Positions 54,446-62,858 of a stretch of 64,000 nt of DNA are shown in pieces; the stretch's first letter is position 1, and each line of letters begins with the position of its first letter. This DNA comes from Faecousia sp. GTDB taxonomy: Bacteria > Bacillota > Clostridia > Oscillospirales > Oscillospiraceae. Where the stretch lies: positions 4,137-68,136 of the forward strand of contig JAZRCV010000042.1 in assembly GCA_045659925.1 (NCBI GenBank). The letters are read 5' to 3'. Under the pieces are notes generated by a model. It saw only the letters and a program-made list of their open reading frames with translations. It was not told the origin of the DNA and did not search any database. The translations under genes and the position numbers were made by a program.

Positions 54446-54474
54446 TTGATTTTACACGCCATTTGGAGTATGAT
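54446..54474 (+). promoter_or_regulatory. Candidate sigma-A promoter for the hydrogenase operon
   Basis: TTGATT, 17-nt spacer, then TATGAT. Leaves a leader of about 120 nt. Confidence 0.35.
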
Positions 54475-54574
54475 AATATCGGTATGGCTTATTCGATAAA
54501 AATCATTCGATATGACCACTTCTGGGCCCGCTTTTCGTCAACTGAAGCCCGCGCAGAACCATACCACCCGATTC

Positions 54575-54594
54575 GTGTGAAAAACTTTTTACAG
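54575..54594 (+). promoter_or_regulatory. Candidate Rex-type operator (imperfect palindrome) abutting the hydC RBS
   Basis: GTGTGAA-AAACTT-TTTACAG compared with the published Rex consensus TTGTGAA-N6-TTCACAA, giving 11 of 14 specified positions. Confidence 0.3.
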
Positions 54595-54599
54595 GAGGA

Positions 54600-55103
54600 A
54601 TGATGAAAAGTATGGCTTGCAAACATGAAACGGTTCCCTTCCGTGGGACAAAGGAGCAGGAAGCTGCCCTGATGGCTGTCATCAACGAGTATAAGGACAC
54701 TCCCGGTGCTCTGATGCCCATCTTGCAGAAAGCACAGGACATTTATGGTTATCTCCCCATTGAGGTTCAGACCATGATCTCCGACGAAACCGGTATCCCC
54801 ATGGAGAAGATCTATGGCGTTGCCACCTTCTACGCTCAGTTCTCTCTGGAGCCCAAGGGCAAGTACCGCATCTCTGTCTGCCTCGGTACCGCTTGCTACG
54901 TCAAGGGCGCTCAGGAAATCTACGACAAGCTCAAGGAGCTGCTGGGTGTTGGTGACGGCGGCTGCACCCCCGACGGCAAGTTCTCTCTGGATGCCTGCCG
55001 CTGCATCGGTGCCTGCGGTCTGGCTCCCGTTATGACGATCAATGACGATGTCTACGGTCGTCTCACCACGGATATGCTTCCGGACATTCTGGCTAAGTAT
55101 TAA
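54600..55103 (+). CDS. hydC: NuoE-like [2Fe-2S] subunit of HydABC-type hydrogenase (HydC)
   Basis: 167 aa with a thioredoxin-like 2Fe-2S motif: VCLGTACYVKG...LDACRCIGACGLAPV. The start is ambiguous between ATG at 54600, 54603 and 54612. Confidence 0.85.
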   Translation: MMKSMACKHETVPFRGTKEQEAALMAVINEYKDTPGALMPILQKAQDIYGYLPIEVQTMISDETGIPMEKIYGVATFYAQFSLEPKGKYRISVCLGTACYVKGAQEIYDKLKELLGVGDGGCTPDGKFSLDACRCIGACGLAPVMTINDDVYGRLTTDMLPDILAKY

Positions 55104-55117
55104 TTTGGTGGCATTTT

Positions 55118-55465
55118 ATGAAGTTTGAACAGATCAGACAGATTCTCAATGCGCAGGTTGTGTGCTGTGAGGAGCATATGGCTACAGAAGCCAGTGCTGC
55201 TGCCTATGCCAGCGATATGATGAGCGATGTGCTGGCCTTCGTTACCGACCAGACCGTTCTGCTGACCGGTCTTGTCAACGAGCAGGTCATCCGCACCGCC
55301 GCCATGCTGGACATGCGCTGCATCATTCTGGTTCGCAGCAAGCAGCCTACTCCCGGCATGATTCAGCTTGCAAAGCAAAATGACATTGCAATCATGACCA
55401 CCGGATTCAATCTCTATGAATCCTGCGGTATGCTTTACAGCAACGGTCTGAAGGAAGGTTGTTGA
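55118..55465 (+). CDS. DRTGG-domain protein (copy 1)
   Basis: 115 aa. ASDMMSDVLAFVTDQTVLLTGLVNEQVIRTAAMLDMRCIILVRSKQP is the DRTGG-type pattern. The canonical DRTGG residues read as LLTGL here. Confidence 0.65.
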   Translation: MKFEQIRQILNAQVVCCEEHMATEASAAAYASDMMSDVLAFVTDQTVLLTGLVNEQVIRTAAMLDMRCIILVRSKQPTPGMIQLAKQNDIAIMTTGFNLYESCGMLYSNGLKEGC

Positions 55466-55469
55466 AGCA

Positions 55470-55892
55470 ATGTCGGATGCGTTGAAGTTTGAGTATAAGA
55501 TCAGCGGCGAAAATTTTGCCTCCGCAGGTGAAGCCACCATGCGGATCAAAAAAGAACTTCGCTCGCTCGGCTTTTCCCCTGCACTGATCCGTCGCGTCTC
55601 CATCGCAATGTATGAAGGCGAGATCAATATGGTCATCCATGCCGGAGGCGGTGTGGCCACCGTGCTGGTCGATCCCCAGTGCGTTGAGATTACATTGGCA
55701 GACCAGGGTCCCGGCATCGCTGACATCAGCCTTGCCATGCAGGAAGGCTACACCACCGCACCCGATGCCATCCGCTCCTTTGGCTTTGGCGCAGGCATGG
55801 GCCTGCCCAACATGAAGAAGTACACCGATGACATGAGGATCGAATCCGAACTGAACAAAGGTACCACCGTATACATGAAAATCAATGCCTGA
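55470..55892 (+). CDS. Small GHKL-superfamily ATPase resembling anti-sigma Ser/Thr kinases (RsbW/SpoIIAB-like)
   Basis: 140 aa with N-box EGEINMVIHA, G1 DQGPGI and G2 GFGAGMGLPN. There is no HisKA/dimerisation domain. Confidence 0.7.
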   Translation: MSDALKFEYKISGENFASAGEATMRIKKELRSLGFSPALIRRVSIAMYEGEINMVIHAGGGVATVLVDPQCVEITLADQGPGIADISLAMQEGYTTAPDAIRSFGFGAGMGLPNMKKYTDDMRIESELNKGTTVYMKINA

Positions 55893-55930
55893 TCACGCTC
55901 TTGTGGCGTTTTTGGGCCGAATGAGGACAT

Positions 55931-57229
55931 ATGGCAAAATACAATCACTCGGTTTTACTGGATTTCAGCAAATGCAAGGGCTGCACCCACTGTCTAAAAC
56001 GCTGTCCTACCGAAGCGATCCGTATCCGCAACGGTCATGCGCAGATTTCTGCGACCAGTTGTATCGACTGCGGCGAGTGCATCCGCCTTTGCCCCTACAA
56101 TGCGAAAACGGCCATCTGCGATAAGCTGGAGGCCATCGAGTCCTTCCGCTACAAAATTGCCCTGCCGCCCCCCAGCCTCTACGGTCAGTTTGACCATCTG
56201 GACGATATCGACTATCTGCTCCAGGGTCTGCGTGATTATGGCTTTGACGAGGTATTTGAGGTAGCACAGGCTGCGGAGATCGTATCCGGCTATACCCGCA
56301 GATATCTGCGCCGTCCCGATGTCATAAAGCCTGCCATCAGCTCCGCGTGTCCTGCGATCTCGCATCTGATTGAGCAGCGCTTCCCCAATCTGATTGATAA
56401 TGTCATTCCGCTGCTGCCCCCTGTGGATGTGGCGGCGAGAATGGCCCGCGAAAAGGCGCTGGCTGAGCATCCTGAGCTCAAAAGCGAGGACATTGGCATC
56501 TGCTTCATTTCGCCTTGCCCCGCCAAAGTCAGCTACCTGAAAAACGAAATTGCAAAAGGCCGGTCCAATGTGGACTGCGTCGTTTCCATGGGAGATATGT
56601 ATTTCTCCCTAGTCAATATCATGAGCCGTGCCATTGAGCCTGAGGTAAATTCTCAGACCGGCATCATCGGCGTCAGCTGGGCTTCCAGCGGCGGCGAAGC
56701 CAGTGCACTGTTCAACGACCGCTATCTGGCAGCGGACGGCATCGAAAATGTCATCCGTGTGCTGGAAAACATTGATAACGGCTCCTTCCCGGAGCTGGAA
56801 TTCATCGAGCTCAATGCCTGCAGCGGTGGCTGTGTCGGCGGCGTACTGACGGTGGAAAATGCGTTCATCGCCAAGGCCCGTCTGCAAACCGTCCGCCACT
56901 ATCTACCCGTATCCCGCAACTGGAATGTCGCCGGTGATGCCAAATCGGATATTTCCATTCCGGACACTCTGTTTATGAGTGAGCCTCTGGAATATACCCC
57001 CCACGGCAGTCTGGCCGACAATATGATGGAAGCTTTCCGCAAGCGCGCCAAAATTCAGGAAATCGTCGATCGGCTTCCTGCACTGGATTGCGGTTCCTGC
57101 GGCTCTCCCACCTGCCTCGCCTTTGCAATGGACATTGTCAACGGCAACGCCACGGAGGATGAATGCATCGTAAAGATGCGGGATAGAATGCATGAGCTTT
57201 TGGGAGGATCTGACCATGACAGTCCGTGA
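55931..57229 (+). CDS. HydS-like (putative sensory) [FeFe]-hydrogenase paralogue lacking the proton-relay cysteine
   Basis: Two N-terminal 4Fe-4S motifs (CKGCTHCLKRCP, CIDCGECIRLCP). H-domain motifs are L1 SSACPAI, L2 SPCPAKVSY and L3 ELNACSGGCVGG. An extra C-terminal motif CGSCGSPTC...C is present. I saw no PAS domain. Confidence 0.75.
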   Translation: MAKYNHSVLLDFSKCKGCTHCLKRCPTEAIRIRNGHAQISATSCIDCGECIRLCPYNAKTAICDKLEAIESFRYKIALPPPSLYGQFDHLDDIDYLLQGLRDYGFDEVFEVAQAAEIVSGYTRRYLRRPDVIKPAISSACPAISHLIEQRFPNLIDNVIPLLPPVDVAARMAREKALAEHPELKSEDIGICFISPCPAKVSYLKNEIAKGRSNVDCVVSMGDMYFSLVNIMSRAIEPEVNSQTGIIGVSWASSGGEASALFNDRYLAADGIENVIRVLENIDNGSFPELEFIELNACSGGCVGGVLTVENAFIAKARLQTVRHYLPVSRNWNVAGDAKSDISIPDTLFMSEPLEYTPHGSLADNMMEAFRKRAKIQEIVDRLPALDCGSCGSPTCLAFAMDIVNGNATEDECIVKMRDRMHELLGGSDHDSP

Positions 57230-57542
57230 ACTTTGTGACGCCGCCGGCTTTGCCCCTCTGGCACTGCCGGATCCTGACCGTGAAATTGAAGGCTGCTATG
57301 TGGGCGACCTTCTGAGCTGGGTCATGGGCAATGCGTCCTATGGCTGCGCCTGGGTCACGATCATGACCAACCGTAATATCATCGCCGTAGCTACCCTCAT
57401 CGATATGGCCTGCATCCTTCTGGCAGAAGGCTGCACCCTGCCGGAGGATCTGACAGAGCTGGCAATGAGCCAGAATGTCAATGTGCTCACCAGCGCAAAG
57501 CCCGCGTATGAAACCTGCGCGGCACTGGCGGGGCTGCTATGA
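57216..57542 (+). CDS. DRTGG-domain protein (copy 2)
   Basis: 108 aa. VGDLLSWVMGNASYGCAWVTIMTNRNIIAVATLIDMACILLAEG parallels copy 1. ATG at 57216 sits behind gggagga and overlaps the upstream gene by 14 nt. Confidence 0.6.
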   Translation: MTVRELCDAAGFAPLALPDPDREIEGCYVGDLLSWVMGNASYGCAWVTIMTNRNIIAVATLIDMACILLAEGCTLPEDLTELAMSQNVNVLTSAKPAYETCAALAGLL

Positions 57543-58267
57543 GGCGCGTCTACTGCGACTTCCACATCCACTCGTGTCTGTCCCCCTGCGGTGACGACAG
57601 CATGACCCCGGCTCTGGCCGCCGGTCTTTTGAAGCTGTCGGGCTACGATGTGGCAGCCCTCACCGACCACAACGCCACAGGCAACTGCCCGGCCTTCTTC
57701 CGCGCCTGCGAAAGCTATGGCCTGACGCCTCTGGCCGGAATGGAGCTGACCACGGCGGAAGACATCCATCTGGTATGTCTGCTGAGAACCTGCGAGGAGG
57801 CTGAAGCCTTCGGGCAGGCAGTGCAGCAGCATCGGATGCTGATCCGCAATCGTCCCCAGTTTTTTGGACGGCAGCTTCTGATGGATGCGGAGGACAATAT
57901 TCTGGGTGAAGAACCGAATCTGCTTCCCAATGCCACGGATCTGTCCCTGGAGGATGCCTACGCATTGGCCACCGATTTTGGTGCCATCTGCTATCCCGCC
58001 CATGTGGACCGGGAAAGCAACGGCATTTTGGCCATCCTCGGTGATATGCCGGAATTGCCCTCCTTTTCCCACGCGGAATTCCGCGAACCGGAAAACCGGG
58101 ACAACTACTGCATCCACTATCCCCGCCTGAAGGGTCTGCGTCCCCTCTTTGGTTCCGACGCTCATCGACCCGACGCCATCTGCGATGCACAGTTCTCCAT
58201 TGAGATCGCGCAGACCGGCGATGTGGCGGCGGCAGTCATGGAAGCATTGCAAGGAGGAAGCCGATGA
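57539..58267 (+). CDS. PHP-family metal-dependent phosphoesterase
   Basis: 242 aa. CDFHIHSCLSPCGDD...LTDHNA...AGMELTT...PAHVD are PHP His/Asp metal ligands. ATGA overlap with the upstream gene. Confidence 0.75.
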   Translation: MRRVYCDFHIHSCLSPCGDDSMTPALAAGLLKLSGYDVAALTDHNATGNCPAFFRACESYGLTPLAGMELTTAEDIHLVCLLRTCEEAEAFGQAVQQHRMLIRNRPQFFGRQLLMDAEDNILGEEPNLLPNATDLSLEDAYALATDFGAICYPAHVDRESNGILAILGDMPELPSFSHAEFREPENRDNYCIHYPRLKGLRPLFGSDAHRPDAICDAQFSIEIAQTGDVAAAVMEALQGGSR

Positions 58268-58812
58268 AAGAGCTGTCACTCAACATTTTGGACATCGCCA
58301 TGAATTCCGTCAAAGCCGGTGCCAATCATCTTGGCATTGAACTGAACGAGACGGAAGAGCCTCTGCTCACCATTATCATTCGTGATGATGGCTGCGGTAT
58401 GAGTGAGGAATTTGTCCGGCGTCTGTCGGATCCCTTCTGCACCACCCGCACCACACGAAAGGTGGGTCTGGGCGTTCCCTTCTACCTGCTGGCAGCAGAG
58501 CAGACGGGCGGCGGCGTCACCATTGAATCCACCCCCGAGCCCGATCCCAATCACGGTACCACGGTAACTGCCGTGTTCCGCAAGGATCACATCGATTTTA
58601 CGCCCCTGGGCGATATCATCTCCACCATCACTACCCTGATCCACGGCTACCCGGACATTGCGCTGGAGTTTTCCCACCGCTTCCCTACCCACGCGGTAGA
58701 ATTGTCCACAGTTGAGATCAAGGCGATGCTTGGGGACATTCCCATCAACACTCTGGAAATCCTCAACTGGATCAGGGACTTTCTGGAAGAACAATACGAT
58801 CACCAATCATAG
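58264..58812 (+). CDS. GHKL-superfamily ATPase (HATPase_c-like, copy 2)
   Basis: 182 aa with an N-box-like LNILDIAMNSVKAGA, G1 RDDGCGM and G2 VGLGVPF. ATGA overlap with the PHP gene. Confidence 0.65.
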   Translation: MKELSLNILDIAMNSVKAGANHLGIELNETEEPLLTIIIRDDGCGMSEEFVRRLSDPFCTTRTTRKVGLGVPFYLLAAEQTGGGVTIESTPEPDPNHGTTVTAVFRKDHIDFTPLGDIISTITTLIHGYPDIALEFSHRFPTHAVELSTVEIKAMLGDIPINTLEILNWIRDFLEEQYDHQS

Positions 58813-58828
58813 AAGGAAGGATAACATC

Positions 58829-59197
58829 ATGAAAACACTCGAAGAACTTGCTCAGCTCAGAGAGCAAATGAAGGCGAAGATGGCAATCCGCACCACCGAA
58901 GGCAAGCTCCGTGTAGTAGTCGGCATGGCTACCTGCGGCATTGCTGCCGGCGCAAGACCCGTCCTCAACACCCTTGCCGACGAAGTCAGCAAGGAAGGCC
59001 TGACGGAAAAGGTTTCCGTTTCCCAGACCGGCTGCATTGGCATCTGCCAGTTTGAGCCCGTCATCGAAGTCTTTGACGGCGACTCCAAGGTCACCTATGT
59101 CAAGATGACCCCCGACAAGGCAAAGCGCATCGTTGCCGAGCACCTCAAGGGTGGCAAGGTTGTTCAGGAATACACCATCGGCAATTCTAATGTTTAA
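58829..59197 (+). CDS. Thioredoxin-like [2Fe-2S] ferredoxin
   Basis: 122 aa. VVGMATCGIAAG...QTGCIGICQFEP has four Cys in the NuoE/HydC-like spacing. Confidence 0.75.
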   Translation: MKTLEELAQLREQMKAKMAIRTTEGKLRVVVGMATCGIAAGARPVLNTLADEVSKEGLTEKVSVSQTGCIGICQFEPVIEVFDGDSKVTYVKMTPDKAKRIVAEHLKGGKVVQEYTIGNSNV

Positions 59198-59217
59198 TCA
59201 CGGAGGAGCAGTATAGT

Positions 59218-61005
59218 ATGATTCGTTCTCATGTTATGATTTGTGCCGGTACCGGTTGTACCGCATCCGGCAGTGCTACTCTGCAGGCTTCCCTGCAGAA
59301 AGAGCTGGAAGCAAAGGGTCTGCAGGAAGAAGTCCGCATCGTCCCGACCGGCTGCTTCGGCCTTTGTGCCCTTGGCCCCATCATGATCATCTACCCCGAA
59401 GGCGTGTTCTATGCCAACGTTGAGGCATCTGATATTCCCGAAATCGTGGAAGAGCACCTGCTGAAGGGCCGTATCGTTCAGCGCCTCGTCCATACCGATG
59501 AGACCACCAAGGAACTCGTCACCAACCTGGCTGACACCAGCTTCTACAAGATCCAGCAGCGTGTTGCTCTGCGTAACTGCGGCGAAATCGACCCCGAAAA
59601 CATCGACGAATACATTGCCAAGGACGGCTATGCAGCCCTTGCCAAGGTTCTGACCCAGATGTCTCCTGAAGATGTCATCCAGACCCTGCTTGACTCCGGT
59701 CTTCGCGGCCGCGGCGGCGCAGGCTTCCCCACCGGCCTGAAGTGGAAGTTTGCCAGAGGCTATCAGGATGATCAGAAGTACGTCTGCTGCAACGCTGACG
59801 AAGGCGACCCCGGTGCATTCATGGACCGCTCCATCCTGGAAGGCGACCCCCATGCACTTCTCGAAGCTATGACCATCGCCGGTTACACCATCGGCGCAAA
59901 TCAGGGCTACATCTACGTTCGTGCTGAATATCCCATCGCTGTTCAGCGTCTGGACATCGCCATCAAGCAGTCCAGAGAATACGGCCTGCTGGGCGACAAC
60001 ATCCTCGGCACCGGCTTCAAGTTCAACATCGACCTGCGTCTGGGCGCTGGCGCATTCGTCTGCGGCGAAGAAACTGCTCTGATGACCTCCATCGAAGGCA
60101 ACCGCGGCGAACCCCGTCCCCGTCCTCCCTTCCCCGCTGAAAAGGGTCTGTACAACAAGCCCTCCATCCTGAACAACGTAGAAACCTACGCCAACATCCC
60201 CCAGATCATCCTCAAGGGCGCTGACTGGTTCGCCTCCATGGGCACCGAACAGTCCAAGGGCACCAAGGTCTTCGCTCTGGGCGGCAAGATCGAGCACACC
60301 GGCCTGGTGGAAGTCCCCATGGGCACCACCCTGCGCCAGATCGTTGAAGAAGTTGGCGGCGGCATCCCCAACGGCAAGAAGTTCAAGGCTGCTCAGACCG
60401 GCGGTCCTTCCGGCGGCTGCATCCCCATTGAACACTTCGACGTTCCCGTTGGCTACGAACACCTGGCAGAGCTGGGCTCCATCGTTGGTTCCGGCGGTCT
60501 GATCGTCATGGACGAAGACAACTGCATGGTCGACATCGCTAAGTTCTTCCTCGAATTCACCGTTGATGAATCCTGCGGTAAGTGCACTCCCTGCCGTATC
60601 GGCACCCGCCGTATGCTGGAGCTGCTCGACAAGATCACCGAGGGCAACGGCACCATGGAAGATCTGGAAAAGCTCGAAGAGCTGTGCTACTATGTCAAGG
60701 AAAACTCCCTGTGCGGTCTGGGCCAGACGGCTCCCAACCCCGTTGTTTCCACCCTCCGCTTCTTCCGCGATGAGTACATTGCCCATATCGTTGACAAGCG
60801 CTGCCCCGCTGGCGTCTGCAAGAGCCTGATGCAGTATGTCATCGATGCCGACAAGTGCAAGGGCTGCTCCCTCTGCGCAAGAAAGTGCCCCGTTGGCGCA
60901 ATCTCCGGTTCCGTCAAGAATCCCCATGTGATCGATCCTGTCAAGTGCATCAAGTGCGGCGCCTGCGAAGCAGCCTGCAAGTTCGATGCAATCAGCAAGA
61001 AGTAA
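59218..61005 (+). CDS. hydB: NuoF-like NAD(P)H/FMN-binding subunit of HydABC-type hydrogenase (HydB)
   Basis: 595 aa with an N-terminal 2Fe-2S (CAGTGC...GCFGLC), an FMN site GRGGAGFPTGLKW, a nucleotide site CNADEGDPGAF, the N3-type cluster ESCGKCTPCR, and two C-terminal 4Fe-4S motifs. Confidence 0.9.
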   Translation: MIRSHVMICAGTGCTASGSATLQASLQKELEAKGLQEEVRIVPTGCFGLCALGPIMIIYPEGVFYANVEASDIPEIVEEHLLKGRIVQRLVHTDETTKELVTNLADTSFYKIQQRVALRNCGEIDPENIDEYIAKDGYAALAKVLTQMSPEDVIQTLLDSGLRGRGGAGFPTGLKWKFARGYQDDQKYVCCNADEGDPGAFMDRSILEGDPHALLEAMTIAGYTIGANQGYIYVRAEYPIAVQRLDIAIKQSREYGLLGDNILGTGFKFNIDLRLGAGAFVCGEETALMTSIEGNRGEPRPRPPFPAEKGLYNKPSILNNVETYANIPQIILKGADWFASMGTEQSKGTKVFALGGKIEHTGLVEVPMGTTLRQIVEEVGGGIPNGKKFKAAQTGGPSGGCIPIEHFDVPVGYEHLAELGSIVGSGGLIVMDEDNCMVDIAKFFLEFTVDESCGKCTPCRIGTRRMLELLDKITEGNGTMEDLEKLEELCYYVKENSLCGLGQTAPNPVVSTLRFFRDEYIAHIVDKRCPAGVCKSLMQYVIDADKCKGCSLCARKCPVGAISGSVKNPHVIDPVKCIKCGACEAACKFDAISKK

Positions 61006-61018
61006 GGAGGAACAGAGC

Positions 61019-62773
61019 ATGGATATTACGATCAAAATCAATGGTTTCGAAGTGACCGCTCCCCGTGGCACTACGATCCTTCAGGCCGCAAGAATGGCCC
61101 ACATCGACATCCCCACCCTTTGCTACATGAAGGAAATCAATGCAATCGGCGCCTGCCGTCTGTGCGTTGTTGAAGCAAAGGAAGGCCCCCGTCCGGCAAA
61201 GCTGGTCGCCGCCTGTGTATACCCCATCTCCAACGGCATGGAAGTCGTTACCAACAGCCCCAAGGTCATCGAAGCAAGAAAGACCAACCTTGAGCTTCTC
61301 CTCTCCAACCACAATCGCTCCTGCCTGAGCTGCGTGCGCAGCGGCAGATGCGAACTGCAGACCCTCTGCCGTGAATACGGTGTCACCGAGGAAGGCAGAT
61401 ACGACGGCGTCAAGACTCCCAGCGAAATCGACGAGTCCGCCACCCATATGATCCGCGACAACTCCAAGTGCATCCTCTGCCGCCGCTGCGTGGCAGTTTG
61501 CGAGAAGAATCAGGCTGTCGGCGTCATCGGCGCCAACGAGCGTGGCTTCAAGACCAACATCGGCAGCGCCTTTGAAATGGGTCTGGGCGAAACCAGCTGC
61601 GTGGCCTGCGGCCAGTGCATCAACGTCTGCCCCACCGGCGCTCTGCATGAAAAGGAATCCATTGACGACGTTCTCGCCGCCATTGCCGATCCCACCAAGT
61701 ATGTCGTGGTTCAGACTGCTCCCGCTGTCCGTGCTGCTCTGGGCGAATGCTTCGGCCTGCCCATCGGCACCAACGTAGAAGGCAAGATGGTCGCTGCTCT
61801 GCGCCGTCTCGGCTTCGACCGCGTCTTCGATACCGACTTCTCCGCTGACCTCACCATCATGGAAGAAGCCAACGAGTTCATCGAACGCGTACAGAATGGC
61901 GGCAAGCTGCCCCTCATCACCTCCTGCAGCCCCGGCTGGATCAAGTACTGCGAACACTACTTCCCCGAAATGGTCGAGAACCTGTCCTCCTGCAAGTCTC
62001 CCCAGCAGATGCTCGGCGCTGTCATCAAGACCTACTTCGCAGAGACCATGGGCATTGATCCCAAGAACATCGTTTCTGTTTCCGTCATGCCCTGCACCGC
62101 TAAGAAGTTCGAGATCGGCCGCGACAATCAGAACGCTGCCGGTGTTGCCGACGTGGACTTTGCTCTCTCCACCCGTGAACTCGGCCGCATGATCGAGAAG
62201 GTCGGCATCCGCTTCCTGGATCTGCCCGATGAAGAGTACGACTCTCCCCTGGGTGAAGACACCGGCGCAGCTGTCATCTTCGGCGCCACCGGCGGTGTTA
62301 TGGAAGCTGCTCTGCGTACTGCAGTGGAAACCCTCACCGGCACCGAGCTGGAAAGCGTTGACTTCCACGAAGTCCGCGGCCTGGCTGGCATCAAGGAAGC
62401 TACCTACAACGTCAACGGCATGGACGTCAACGTTGCTGTCGCTTCCGGCCTGAAGAATGCTCATGACCTGCTCATGCGTGTCCAGAACGGCGAAGCCAAC
62501 TATCACTTCATCGAGATCATGGGTTGCCCCGGCGGCTGCATCAACGGCGGCGGCCAGCCCCAGCAGCCTGCTTCCGTCCGCAACTTTGTGGATGTTCCCG
62601 CTCTGCGCGCCAAGGTTCTGTACGATCAGGATGCAGCAATGCCCCTGCGTAAGTCCCACGCAAATCCCTCTATCCAGAAGCTGTACGCTGAGTACTTCGA
62701 GAAACCCGGCAGCCACAAGGCTCACGAGTATCTCCACACCACTTACGTCAAGCGTACCATCAACCACAACTAA
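61019..62773 (+). CDS. hydA: [FeFe]-hydrogenase catalytic subunit HydA (M3 architecture) with non-canonical L1 motif
   Basis: 584 aa with an N-terminal 2Fe-2S (CYMKEINAIGACRLC), a His-ligated cluster and two 4Fe-4S motifs. L1 is TSCSPGW, L2 is MPCTAKKFE and L3 is EIMGCPGGCINGGGQP. ATG at 61019 sits behind aaggagg. Confidence 0.9.
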   Translation: MDITIKINGFEVTAPRGTTILQAARMAHIDIPTLCYMKEINAIGACRLCVVEAKEGPRPAKLVAACVYPISNGMEVVTNSPKVIEARKTNLELLLSNHNRSCLSCVRSGRCELQTLCREYGVTEEGRYDGVKTPSEIDESATHMIRDNSKCILCRRCVAVCEKNQAVGVIGANERGFKTNIGSAFEMGLGETSCVACGQCINVCPTGALHEKESIDDVLAAIADPTKYVVVQTAPAVRAALGECFGLPIGTNVEGKMVAALRRLGFDRVFDTDFSADLTIMEEANEFIERVQNGGKLPLITSCSPGWIKYCEHYFPEMVENLSSCKSPQQMLGAVIKTYFAETMGIDPKNIVSVSVMPCTAKKFEIGRDNQNAAGVADVDFALSTRELGRMIEKVGIRFLDLPDEEYDSPLGEDTGAAVIFGATGGVMEAALRTAVETLTGTELESVDFHEVRGLAGIKEATYNVNGMDVNVAVASGLKNAHDLLMRVQNGEANYHFIEIMGCPGGCINGGGQPQQPASVRNFVDVPALRAKVLYDQDAAMPLRKSHANPSIQKLYAEYFEKPGSHKAHEYLHTTYVKRTINHN

Positions 62774-62785
62774 TCATTGCAACAA

Positions 62786-62818
62786 CCGCCCCTGCTCCGG
62801 CAGGGGCGGGTCTGTATT
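62786..62818 (+). terminator. Terminator hairpin after hydA
   Basis: 10-bp GC-rich stem ccgcccctgc / gcaggggcgg with a tetraloop and a weak U-tail. Confidence 0.55.
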
Positions 62819-62824
62819 GAACAA

Positions 62825-62858
62825 CGCAAAAACAGGCAGCGCTTGAGCGCTGCCTGTT
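62825..62858 (-). terminator. Rho-independent terminator of groEL (minus strand)
   Basis: 12-bp stem aacaggcagcgc / gcgctgcctgtt. The minus strand continues with tttttgcg. Confidence 0.8.

Follow-up and report, generated by a model that had tools for sequence, protein, structure and literature searches.

[FeFe] hydrogenases of group D (M2e) are defined by a C-terminal Cx2Cx4Cx16C motif, which has been described for both M2e and M2f, by the lack of a PAS domain, a C299 position that is not conserved, and the replacement of M353 by Ser or Thr (PMC8163306), and their genes are found with, or 5' of, those for a multimeric bifurcating hydrogenase of group A (PMC8163306, PMC11803613). TamHydS from Thermoanaerobacter mathranii serves as the model enzyme of the group and has been the subject of several papers between 2020 and 2026 (PMC8163306, PMC10407848, PMC11803613, PMC13104023); its semisynthetic maturation combined with FTIR and EPR spectroscopy, as well as a C-terminal Cys mutant, are already published (PMC8163306, PMC13104023). 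The enzyme binds the H-cluster, shows low and irreversible turnover, stabilises the Hred state and tolerates CO (PMC8163306, PMC11803613). A survey from 2024 lists group D as functionally undefined (PMC11216029), and the group goes unmentioned in the Morra 2022 review. The group D enzymes, also named HydS, are putative sensors of H2 rather than producers of it. To our knowledge, regulation by a group D enzyme has been demonstrated experimentally in no organism.

The related group C (M2f), exemplified by TmHydS (Thermotoga maritima), the HydS of Ruminococcus albus and HfsB (Thermoanaerobacterium), resembles the protein described here in its two N-terminal clusters, an altered active-site pocket in the H-domain and the C-terminal Cx2Cx4Cx16C motif, and signalling to Ser/Thr kinase and phosphatase partners has been proposed there too. 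However, in group C the C-terminal cluster is followed by a PAS domain, the proteins reach about 560-580 aa, and their partner genes are unlike the DRTGG, GHKL and PHP set of group D. Among [NiFe] enzymes, it is established for HoxBC/HoxJ of Cupriavidus necator that a low-turnover paralogue reports H2 to a kinase controlling energy-converting hydrogenases (PMC5707799). Metal site and protein family of HoxBC are, however, unrelated to those of our protein, and HoxJ, a PAS histidine kinase, acts together with the known response regulator HoxA, whereas the module described below encodes neither a response regulator nor a DNA-binding output.

The window analysed here, the whole stretch of DNA of 64,000 nucleotides, carries a gene, hydS, whose product very probably is a group D (M2e) [FeFe] hydrogenase and an orthologue-level relative of TamHydS. 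It shares an operon with hydC, hydB and hydA.

Domain architecture and active-site motifs of HydS

The hydS gene (Table 1) starts with ATG and has the sequence GAGGA on the 5' side of this codon. Direct reading of the translation recovered the two N-terminal CxxCxxCxxxCP motifs claimed in a preliminary description of the window, namely C15-x2-C18-x2-C21-x3-C25-P26 and C44-x2-C47-x2-C50-x3-C54-P55, with 8/8 cysteines invariant among 80 group D sequences. The readings given there for L1 (SSACPAI), L2 (SPCPAK) and L3 (ACSGGC) were likewise found in the translation, as was the C-terminal four-cysteine motif, which counts as Cx2Cx4Cx16C and matches PF04060. The absence of a PAS domain was also upheld, as Pfam returned no such match in HydS and just 20 residues follow the last cysteine of the C-terminal cluster (C412), leaving no room for one.

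Table 1 Features of the hydS locus (positions in the window; residue numbers refer to HydS)
Feature	Position	Strand	Details
Promoter-like site	54446-54479		ahead of hydC
hydC, NuoE-like [2Fe-2S] subunit, first operon gene	54600..55103	+	PF01257, E 5e-52
DRTGG-domain protein 1	55118..55465	+	115 aa; PF07085, E 2.5e-8
GHKL ATPase 1, SpoIIAB/RsbW-like anti-sigma serine-kinase type	55470..55892	+	140 aa; HATPase_c_2
hydS, putative sensory [FeFe] hydrogenase, very probably group D (M2e)	55931..57229	+	432 aa; two Fer4, PF02906 and PF04060
F-domain, two N-terminal [4Fe-4S] motifs	55973..56095	+	Fer4 Pfam matches
L1 SSACPAI	56339..56359	+	S137-S138-A139-C140-P141-A142-I143; C140, [4Fe-4S]H ligand
L2 SPCPAKVSY	56510..56536	+	S194-P195-C196-P197-A198-K199; C196, ligand; K199 kept
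E256, proposed group D proton relay	56696..56698	+	TamHydS E252
L3 ELNACSGGCVGG	56807..56842	+	E293-L-N-A-C297-S-G-G-C301-V-G-G304; ligands C297, C301
C-terminal Cx2Cx4Cx16C [4Fe-4S] domain	57074..57169	+	PF04060 'FeS', E 2.5e-12; C387, C390, C395, C412
DRTGG-domain protein 2	57192..57542	+	PF07085, 20.9 bits, under its cut-off; kept 3' of hydS
PHP-domain phosphoesterase	57539..58267	+	242 aa; PF02811
GHKL ATPase 2	58264..58812	+	182 aa; PF02518, E 1.6e-11
hydD-like [2Fe-2S] ferredoxin, hydB (NuoF-like), hydA (bifurcating-type group A)	58829..62773	+	Pfam; NF040763, 899.9 bits, above cut-off
Terminators	62786-62858		3' of hydA; terminator scan

The homology of L1-L3 to H-cluster motifs is evident from Pfam, phmmer and Foldseek alike. 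The Fe_hyd_lg_C domain (PF02906) matches HydS residues 92-304 with an E-value of 2.5e-27, and phmmer comparison with the Desulfovibrio desulfuricans enzyme placed ISSACPAI opposite FTSCCPGW, ISPCPAK opposite IMPCIAKK and ELNACSGGCVGG opposite EYMACPGGCVCG. Thereby C140, C196, C297 and C301 align with the [FeFe] hydrogenase ligands (C300, C355, C499 and C503 in CpI) and K199 with the L2 lysine. An AlphaFold2 model of HydS (pLDDT 91.9) retrieved solved [FeFe] hydrogenases (DdHydAB) in a Foldseek search with an E-value of 1e-19. Alignment of L1 to the TSCCP motif of DdH and to the window's own HydA revealed that A139 takes the place of the relay cysteine (CpI C299; TamHydS A137), and alanine occupies this position in 121/121 and 80/80 homologues. 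S194 stands in place of CpI M353, with serine in 121/121 homologues, and N295 in place of CpI M497, so that Ser and Asn replace both Met residues framing the diiron site. A139, S194, E256, D269, E293 and all 16 cluster cysteines are invariant in both homologue sets (80 and 121 sequences). Read from the sequence, HydS retains everything predicted to be needed to bind the H-cluster as well as two [4Fe-4S] clusters at its N-terminus and one at its C-terminus.

Phylogenetic placement and comparison with TamHydS

For comparison at the sequence level, a stand-in for TamHydS was used: the supplement of PMC13104023 gives the coding sequence of TamHydS in a machine-read form with many frameshifts, and one clean stretch of 107 residues led to an orthologue from Thermoanaerobacter thermocopriae (L004) that is 99% identical to it. 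In a maximum-likelihood tree of 51 sequences (IQ-TREE), in which the group A, B and C references were assigned by domain architecture and not from a curated set, HydS fell into the group D clade together with this orthologue (support 100/100). PAS-bearing proteins resembling group C form the sister clade of group D (98/90), and group A forms a separate clade (100/100) far from group D. The retrieved group C-like paralogues contain a PAS domain (PF00989) and lie in a clade apart from HydS. The NCBIfam models point the same way, HydS reaching 82.4 bits where the group A model (TIGR02512) has its cut-off at 405.95, and 150 bits where the B1 model has it at 450. Alignment and phylogeny, the checks proposed at the outset, thus place HydS outside catalytic group A, apart also from groups B and C, and in the clade of the TamHydS orthologue, and the initial claim of a sensory-type paralogue lacking PAS can be narrowed on the basis of motifs, domain architecture and phylogeny to group D (M2e). 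Its treatment of this architecture as unusual was not borne out, as the combination corresponds to the published definition of the M2e subclass: HydS is an ordinary member of a described class, and the listed features are its published hallmarks.

The likeness to TamHydS extends over the same domain order at nearly the same length (432 aa in HydS, 435 aa in TamHydS), the exchange of the relay cysteine for alanine (A139 and A137) and of M353 for serine (S194 and S191), the aspartate directly before Cx2Cx4Cx16C in both proteins, and the conserved residues R31, R33 and K59. Differences are seen in the overall identity of 47% (HydS against the T. thermocopriae orthologue), in N295, which corresponds to L291 in TamHydS at the M497 position, variable within the group, and in E122 of TamHydS (CpI E282), which is Arg in HydS. 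R42 and E392 of TamHydS, predicted to form an inter-domain salt bridge, are replaced by Ser43 and Met400 in HydS and its closest relatives. A sequencing error as the cause of this loss was rejected, the exchange being common to the nine closest database relatives. Furthermore, hydC precedes the module here and follows PHP there, and the host is a mesophilic, gut-derived metagenome-assembled genome (MAG) of the Oscillospirales type, while that of TamHydS is a thermophile. No solved group C or D structure was found in the PDB copy searched by phmmer and with a profile of 80 group D sequences, which gave only partial group A matches.

With group A enzymes (CpI, DdHydAB and the HydA of its own operon) HydS has in common the H-domain fold, the four H-cluster cysteine ligands and the L2 lysine, but it lacks the relay cysteine, the E279/E282/S319 path, Met353 and Met497, and at its C-terminus the small-subunit-like part is replaced by an additional cluster. 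The view that loss of the relay cysteine is a hallmark of groups C and D holds for group D, with alanine in 201/201 sequences, but fails for two retrieved PAS-bearing group C-like paralogues, which have Cys-Cys.

Proton transfer and catalytic capacity

When CpI numbering was carried over to HydS through an alignment with the HydA of the window, no classical group A proton path was found in HydS, as the positions of E279, E282 and S319 are taken by Tyr, Arg and Ile/Pro. An alternative pathway has been proposed for group D (PMC10407848, PMC11803613), and its residues recur in HydS as E256, S253, D269 and E293 (E252, S249, D265 and E289 in TamHydS), with E256, D269 and E293 invariant in 80/80 and 121/121 sequences.

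Such invariance among roughly 200 homologues suggests selection on proton transfer, as would be expected if HydS were no sensor but a slow, genuine catalytic hydrogenase that exchanges electrons with ferredoxin via its N-terminal clusters and moves protons along the alternative pathway. One such role would be that of a CO-tolerant H2 valve of low flux beside HydABC. TamHydS indeed interconverts H+ and H2 in both directions, and the N-terminal F-domain is the standard route of electron transfer (PMC8163306). However, the rate of TamHydS lies about 1000-fold under that of group A enzymes, with a large overpotential (PMC11803613), hydS is a single-copy gene beside a fully competent HydABC, and its flanks are nearly always made up of kinase-like and phosphatase-like genes and not of redox partners. 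We therefore regard a slow catalytic role as unlikely, while leaving it some weight because TamHydS turns over H2 and the residues of the second proton route never vary.

The C-terminal cluster

The C-terminal sequence of HydS reads L385-D-C387-G-S-C390-G-S-P-T-C395-(16 residues)-C412, and the PF04060 region has a further match in the large subunit of CFeSP, at the N-terminus that binds the cluster there. In the group D alignment C387, C390, C395 and C412 are invariant, together with D386 and D401. The preliminary description had proposed this cluster as a redox-coupled interface, in which case it would be reduced upon H2 oxidation and its redox state would constitute the signal to the neighbouring proteins. 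Such a role could account for a motif that is invariant and common to the putative sensory groups C and D, and for the two charged, invariant aspartates beside the cluster. The behaviour of the model enzyme speaks against it: H2 fails to reduce the C-terminal cluster of TamHydS at pH 6-8, and the C379A variant is near wild-type in catalysis and behaviour (PMC13104023). We consider redox signalling by this cluster quite improbable, and a structural or docking function more likely than that of a redox switch.

Gene neighbourhood and prevalence

The DRTGG and GHKL neighbours named in the preliminary description were identified by Pfam on both sides of hydS (Table 1). GHKL ATPase 1 scored 57.7 bits against the spIIAB model TIGR01925, under its cut-off, and its ATP-binding boxes (N, G1 and G2) recur throughout 81 orthologues. 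DRTGG-domain protein 2 likely starts at 57216 or 57222, overlapping the end of hydS, and shares with DRTGG-domain protein 1 a D-[LM]-[LM]-S motif. The PHP protein has conserved metal-ligand motifs (D.H.H, DHN, AH and SDAH). GHKL ATPase 2 travels with hydC and hydD, being placed between both in HydABC-carrying loci. The single promoter-like site ahead of hydC and the terminators behind hydA are consistent with one ten-gene operon. The motif TSCSPGW in the window's HydA was considered as an error and this was rejected, since it is normal in this HydA family and in the solved HydA1 of A. woodii.

Of 80 related loci, nearly all retain the module DRTGG-GHKL-HydS-DRTGG-PHP, including that of the TamHydS orthologue, where it likewise adjoins HydABC. 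DRTGG1 and GHKL1 precede hydS in 75/75 loci with room for both genes, and DRTGG2 and PHP follow it in 70 of 73 loci. HydABC adjoins the module in 43/80 loci, and 18 related loci, each with at least 5 kb on both sides, hold the module with no adjacent HydABC. The HydS architecture occurs in at least 8000 protein clusters, and a HydS-type gene was found in 61 of the 121 sampled genomes of the same order. The genome itself contains only two PF02906 genes, hydA and hydS, and HydABC is its sole catalytic hydrogenase. In a metatranscriptome (X20), short contigs of 90-96% identity derived from relatives span some of the module's genes, hydS among them; contig depth in this data set is no measure of expression, and it was not counted as support.

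Proposed route of H2 signalling

By analogy with TamHydS, for which these properties are known, HydS would bind H2, turn it over slowly and stabilise a one-electron-reduced state of the H-cluster, and its secondary structure may shift under H2 as does that of the model enzyme. Judged from synteny, a signal output via the neighbouring DRTGG and GHKL proteins is plausible. The order of the genes suggests that the H2 status could be passed by protein contact to the SpoIIAB-like GHKL ATPase, the two DRTGG proteins and the PHP phosphoesterase, that these may form a relay of the kinase/phosphatase type, and that this relay would adjust how strongly the electron-bifurcating HydABC next to it is expressed or how active it is.

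As a tentative proposal, possible rather than probable, the five-gene module would represent the machinery, so far missing, by which group D enzymes transduce their signal, with HydS gating the SpoIIAB-like serine kinase and the PHP phosphatase, both acting on the DRTGG proteins with their invariant D-[LM]-[LM]-S motif. Given that none of its genes encodes a DNA-binding protein, the output would be a post-translational control of HydABC, and it may perhaps run through the second GHKL ATPase between hydC and hydD. The same lack of any DNA-binding or sigma-factor gene in the module weighs against a sensor relay, as do the 18 loci in which no HydABC adjoins the module, and with a Rex-like operator and a Rex gene the operon already has a conventional means of being controlled at transcription. 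In the literature library searched, DRTGG and hydrogenase occurred together in two unrelated papers, and no paper was found that ties DRTGG or PHP proteins to hydrogenases.

Absence of HydG

Neither an HMM search nor tblastn detected HydG in the MAG, and the protein was absent from 8/8 other genomes of the same genus, including one that is 99% complete, as well as from 34 of the 61 genomes with HydS that the sample of the order contains. The maturation of the H-cluster in such genomes is a difficulty for reading HydS as a group D H2 sensor. Because HydG is absent, HydS might here lack the [2Fe] subcluster and act as an iron-sulfur sensor of redox state or of the ferredoxin pool, or as a scaffold, and not as a sensor of H2. 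However, HydE and HydF are present, the catalytic HydA is intact in the HydG-less genomes and would need the same cofactor, and the [2Fe]-site residues K199 and S194 and the bridging cysteine C301 are invariant in the HydG-less genus. A HydS devoid of the [2Fe] subcluster thus appears very improbable to us.

Implications for group D hydrogenases

As a gene call, hydS adds one orthologue to a class that is widespread and already published, and in which the features initially flagged are to be expected. The absence of HydG from many genomes with intact hydA and hydS, if confirmed, may deserve more interest. The near-universal order DRTGG-GHKL-HydS-DRTGG-PHP, which recurs in T. thermocopriae around the orthologue of TamHydS, provides concrete candidate signalling partners for group D enzymes.

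Assignment of HydS to group D

Translation of hydS confirmed every motif quoted in the preliminary description, together with its position (Table). That L1–L3 are true homologues of H-cluster motifs, and not look-alikes, is supported by three comparisons: residues 92–304 match Pfam Fe_hyd_lg_C (E 2.5e-27), a phmmer search against the PDB paired L1, L2 and L3 of HydS with the Desulfovibrio desulfuricans sequences TSCCPGW, MPCIAKK and MACPGGCVCG, with the top two matches being C178A variants that read SACP themselves, and an AlphaFold2 model for which 80 homologues served as input (pLDDT 91.9, pTM 0.89) had solved [FeFe] hydrogenases as its closest Foldseek matches (E 1e-19 to 1e-15). The PDB contains no group C or group D structure. 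The C-terminal motif corresponds to Pfam PF04060 'FeS' (E 2.5e-12); no PAS domain was detected, as originally noted, and just 20 residues follow the last Cys.

M2e/group D enzymes are defined in the literature by a pair of clusters at the N-terminus, an H-domain that lacks the relay Cys, a Cx2Cx4Cx16C motif at the C-terminus, the absence of a PAS domain and a location adjoining a bifurcating group A enzyme; their model enzyme is TamHydS of Thermoanaerobacter mathranii (PMC8163306). Judged by its sequence features, hydS presents this same combination and its product belongs to a known class. For phylogenetic placement, every PF02906 paralogue in ten genomes with a group D gene was sorted by Pfam architecture into group A type (~580-600 aa), B-like (~460-540 aa, several ferredoxin domains), C-like (~556-578 aa, C-terminal cluster and PAS) and D-like proteins (~430-460 aa, C-terminal cluster without PAS). 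In the resulting IQ-TREE phylogeny (LG+C20, 51 sequences), the D-like proteins, including HydS and a TamHydS orthologue, formed a single clade (100/100) that was sister to the C-like clade (98/90), while group A formed a clade apart (100/100). HydS fell short of the NCBIfam cut-offs, with 82 bits for group A (cut-off 406) and 150 bits for B1 (cut-off 450), and the neighbouring HydA cleared its own model with 900 bits. Tree and scores thus place HydS outside group A, contrary to the branching that would have refuted the sensory-type affiliation proposed earlier. The architecture recurs in 8000 or more clusters formed at 90% identity, and in a sample of 121 genomes from the same order the group D gene occurred in 61 (48/87 genera), in one copy each.

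The accompanying claim that loss of the relay Cys marks groups C and D held for group D but not throughout group C, as two of the three C-like paralogues examined keep the residue; unlike in group D, its loss is no universal hallmark of group C.

Residue equivalences

As a stand-in for TamHydS, the natural orthologue from Thermoanaerobacter thermocopriae (435 aa) was used; it shares 99% identity with a clean stretch of TamHydS 107 residues long, and its numbering matches the published C20, A137, S191, E252 and C379. Positions were converted to the numbering of CpI, the group A reference, through the HydA encoded in the window. A139, S194, E256, D269, E293 and all 16 cluster Cys were invariant among 80 genome-derived and 121 database homologues. 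Group D membership of HydS is demonstrated here, as is the integrity of its cofactor-binding and relay residues. HydS differs from TamHydS at R42, which is Ser in HydS and its nine closest database relatives, and at E392, which is Met in HydS and Met, Leu or Gln across the same set; Arg and Glu are kept in sister lineages and in ~85% of other group D sequences. Both residues are part of an N- to C-domain salt-bridge network predicted by the TamHydS authors, and their joint loss would fit a real contact between the two sites, the association (Fisher p 1e-5) stemming mostly from the change in one clade.

The L1 motif of the window's HydA reads TSCSPGW rather than TSCCPxW. This variant is found in all retrieved bifurcating-type HydA orthologues and in the solved A. 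woodii HydA1 (PDB 7Q4V), and is evidently ordinary for the family.

Table. Features of the HydS locus, residue equivalences and related loci
Feature	Location	Strand	Motif or remark
hydS	55931-57229	+	432 residues; ATG start with GAGGA upstream
HydS ferredoxin-type motif 1	C15-x2-C18-x2-C21-x3-C25-P	+	translation
HydS ferredoxin-type motif 2	C44-x2-C47-x2-C50-x3-C54-P	+	translation
HydS L1	A139, C140	+	SSACPAI; translation
HydS L2	C196, K199	+	SPCPAK; translation
HydS L3	C297, C301	+	ELNACSGGCVGG; translation
HydS C-terminus	C387, C390, C395, C412	+	LDCGSCGSPTC-x16-C; translation
CpI C299	A139		
CpI M353	S194		
CpI M497	N295		
CpI E279			Tyr in HydS
CpI E282			Arg in HydS
CpI S319			Ile/Pro in HydS
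Tam E252	E256		group D relay
Tam S249	S253		
Tam D265	D269		
Tam E289	E293		
Tam R42	S43, 56057-56059		
Tam E392	M400, 57128-57130		
Rex-like palindrome	54575-54594		TGTGAA-N6-TTTACA
DRTGG1	55118-55465		
DRTGG2	57192-57542		frame from first ATG
GHKL2	58264-58812		
HydA L1	61919-61939		TSCSPGW
Transcript contigs (X20)	55610-59417		
C-like PAS paralogue, L1	L106:1285-3012		TTCCPS
C-like PAS paralogue, L1	L114:1464-3131		TSCCHS
C-like PAS paralogue, L1	L107:685-2391		GTACSS
HydE and HydF	L121:3412-8201 (C95)		own genome
ABC transporter	L121:4640-7092 (C95)	-	between hydF and hydE
Rex homologue	C46:703-846		PF06971, 54.5 bits; own genome

Gene neighbourhood

The gene lies in a ten-gene same-strand unit (hydC, DRTGG1, GHKL1, hydS, DRTGG2, PHP, GHKL2, a hydD-like [2Fe-2S] protein gene, hydB, hydA) with a single promoter-like site 5' of hydC and terminators 3' of hydA; hydA and hydS are the sole PF02906 genes of the 1.75-Mb MAG. 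The comparison covered 80 related loci, drawn from named Bacillota and a single Coprothermobacterota MAG. DRTGG1 and GHKL1 preceded hydS in all 75 loci with room, and DRTGG2 and PHP followed it in 70/73; the T. thermocopriae locus carries the same DRTGG-GHKL-HydS-DRTGG-PHP module. The bifurcating HydABC genes adjoin it in 43/80 loci (28 on the same strand after the module, 9 divergent, 6 as in the window with hydC first). The module was present with no HydABC genes nearby in 18 loci whose flanks extend 5 kb or more to either side (e.g. L007, L008, L010, L013, L018, L020), and the HydS module is thus not strictly bound to the HydABC operon.

GHKL1 is similar to SpoIIAB, an anti-sigma serine kinase (57.7 bits, under the cut-off), with the N, G1 and G2 boxes intact, and the PHP metal ligands are likewise kept. 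DRTGG1 and DRTGG2 are paralogues sharing an invariant D-[LM]-[LM]-S motif. Read from its first ATG, the DRTGG2 frame has a 38-nt overlap with the end of hydS (4 nt in T. thermocopriae); a start at 57216 (ATG) or 57222 (GTG) is more likely. GHKL2 always lies between hydC and the small hydD-like gene (window; loci L003-L082), even where the HydABC operon is divergent from the HydS module, and is part of the HydABC gene set rather than of the module. Short contigs of metatranscriptome X20 with 90-96% identity cover GHKL1, hydS, the hydS/DRTGG2 junction, GHKL2 and hydD, a weak hint at transcription of the HydS module in a close relative.

Proposed signalling

TamHydS turns over H2 slowly and in an irreversible-type manner, with a stabilised Hred state; it has a high affinity for H2, tolerates CO and changes its secondary structure in response to H2. 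All of these properties are known solely from the TamHydS literature. The kinase-like, phosphatase-like and DRTGG proteins encoded alongside HydS may read its H2 state, and this readout would then adjust HydABC. No gene for a DNA-binding protein lies in the HydS module. A Rex-like palindrome abuts the hydC ribosome-binding site, and together with the Rex gene of the same genome it offers a putative separate, conventional transcriptional control of the ten-gene unit.

The suggestion that the C-terminal cluster acts as a redox-coupled interface is disfavoured by the TamHydS data, in which this cluster was not reduced by H2 and the C379A variant behaved almost like the wild type (PMC13104023). 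The acidic residues surrounding the cluster are still conserved, which suggests that the C-terminal domain has some role. Overall, the initial observation is confirmed and its interpretation partly supported.

Maturation genes

The own genome encodes HydE and HydF, with an ABC transporter (NMT1/THI5-like binding protein, ATPase, permease) between their genes. HydG was found neither by HMM search nor by tblastn with a same-family HydG in this MAG, and was missing from 8/8 further genomes of this genus (one of them 99% complete and carrying HydE) and from 34 of the 61 HydS-positive genomes of the order sample. In ten HydG-negative genomes of that sample, with completeness of 98% or more, hydA and hydS are intact without exception; in three of them (G013, G014, G017) HydE was also unseen at E<=1e-50. 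From these absences, the canonical H-cluster maturation set looks incomplete in many such gut bacteria. Together with the conserved DRTGG-GHKL-DRTGG-PHP partner module, the HydG gap represents a lead of moderate interest.
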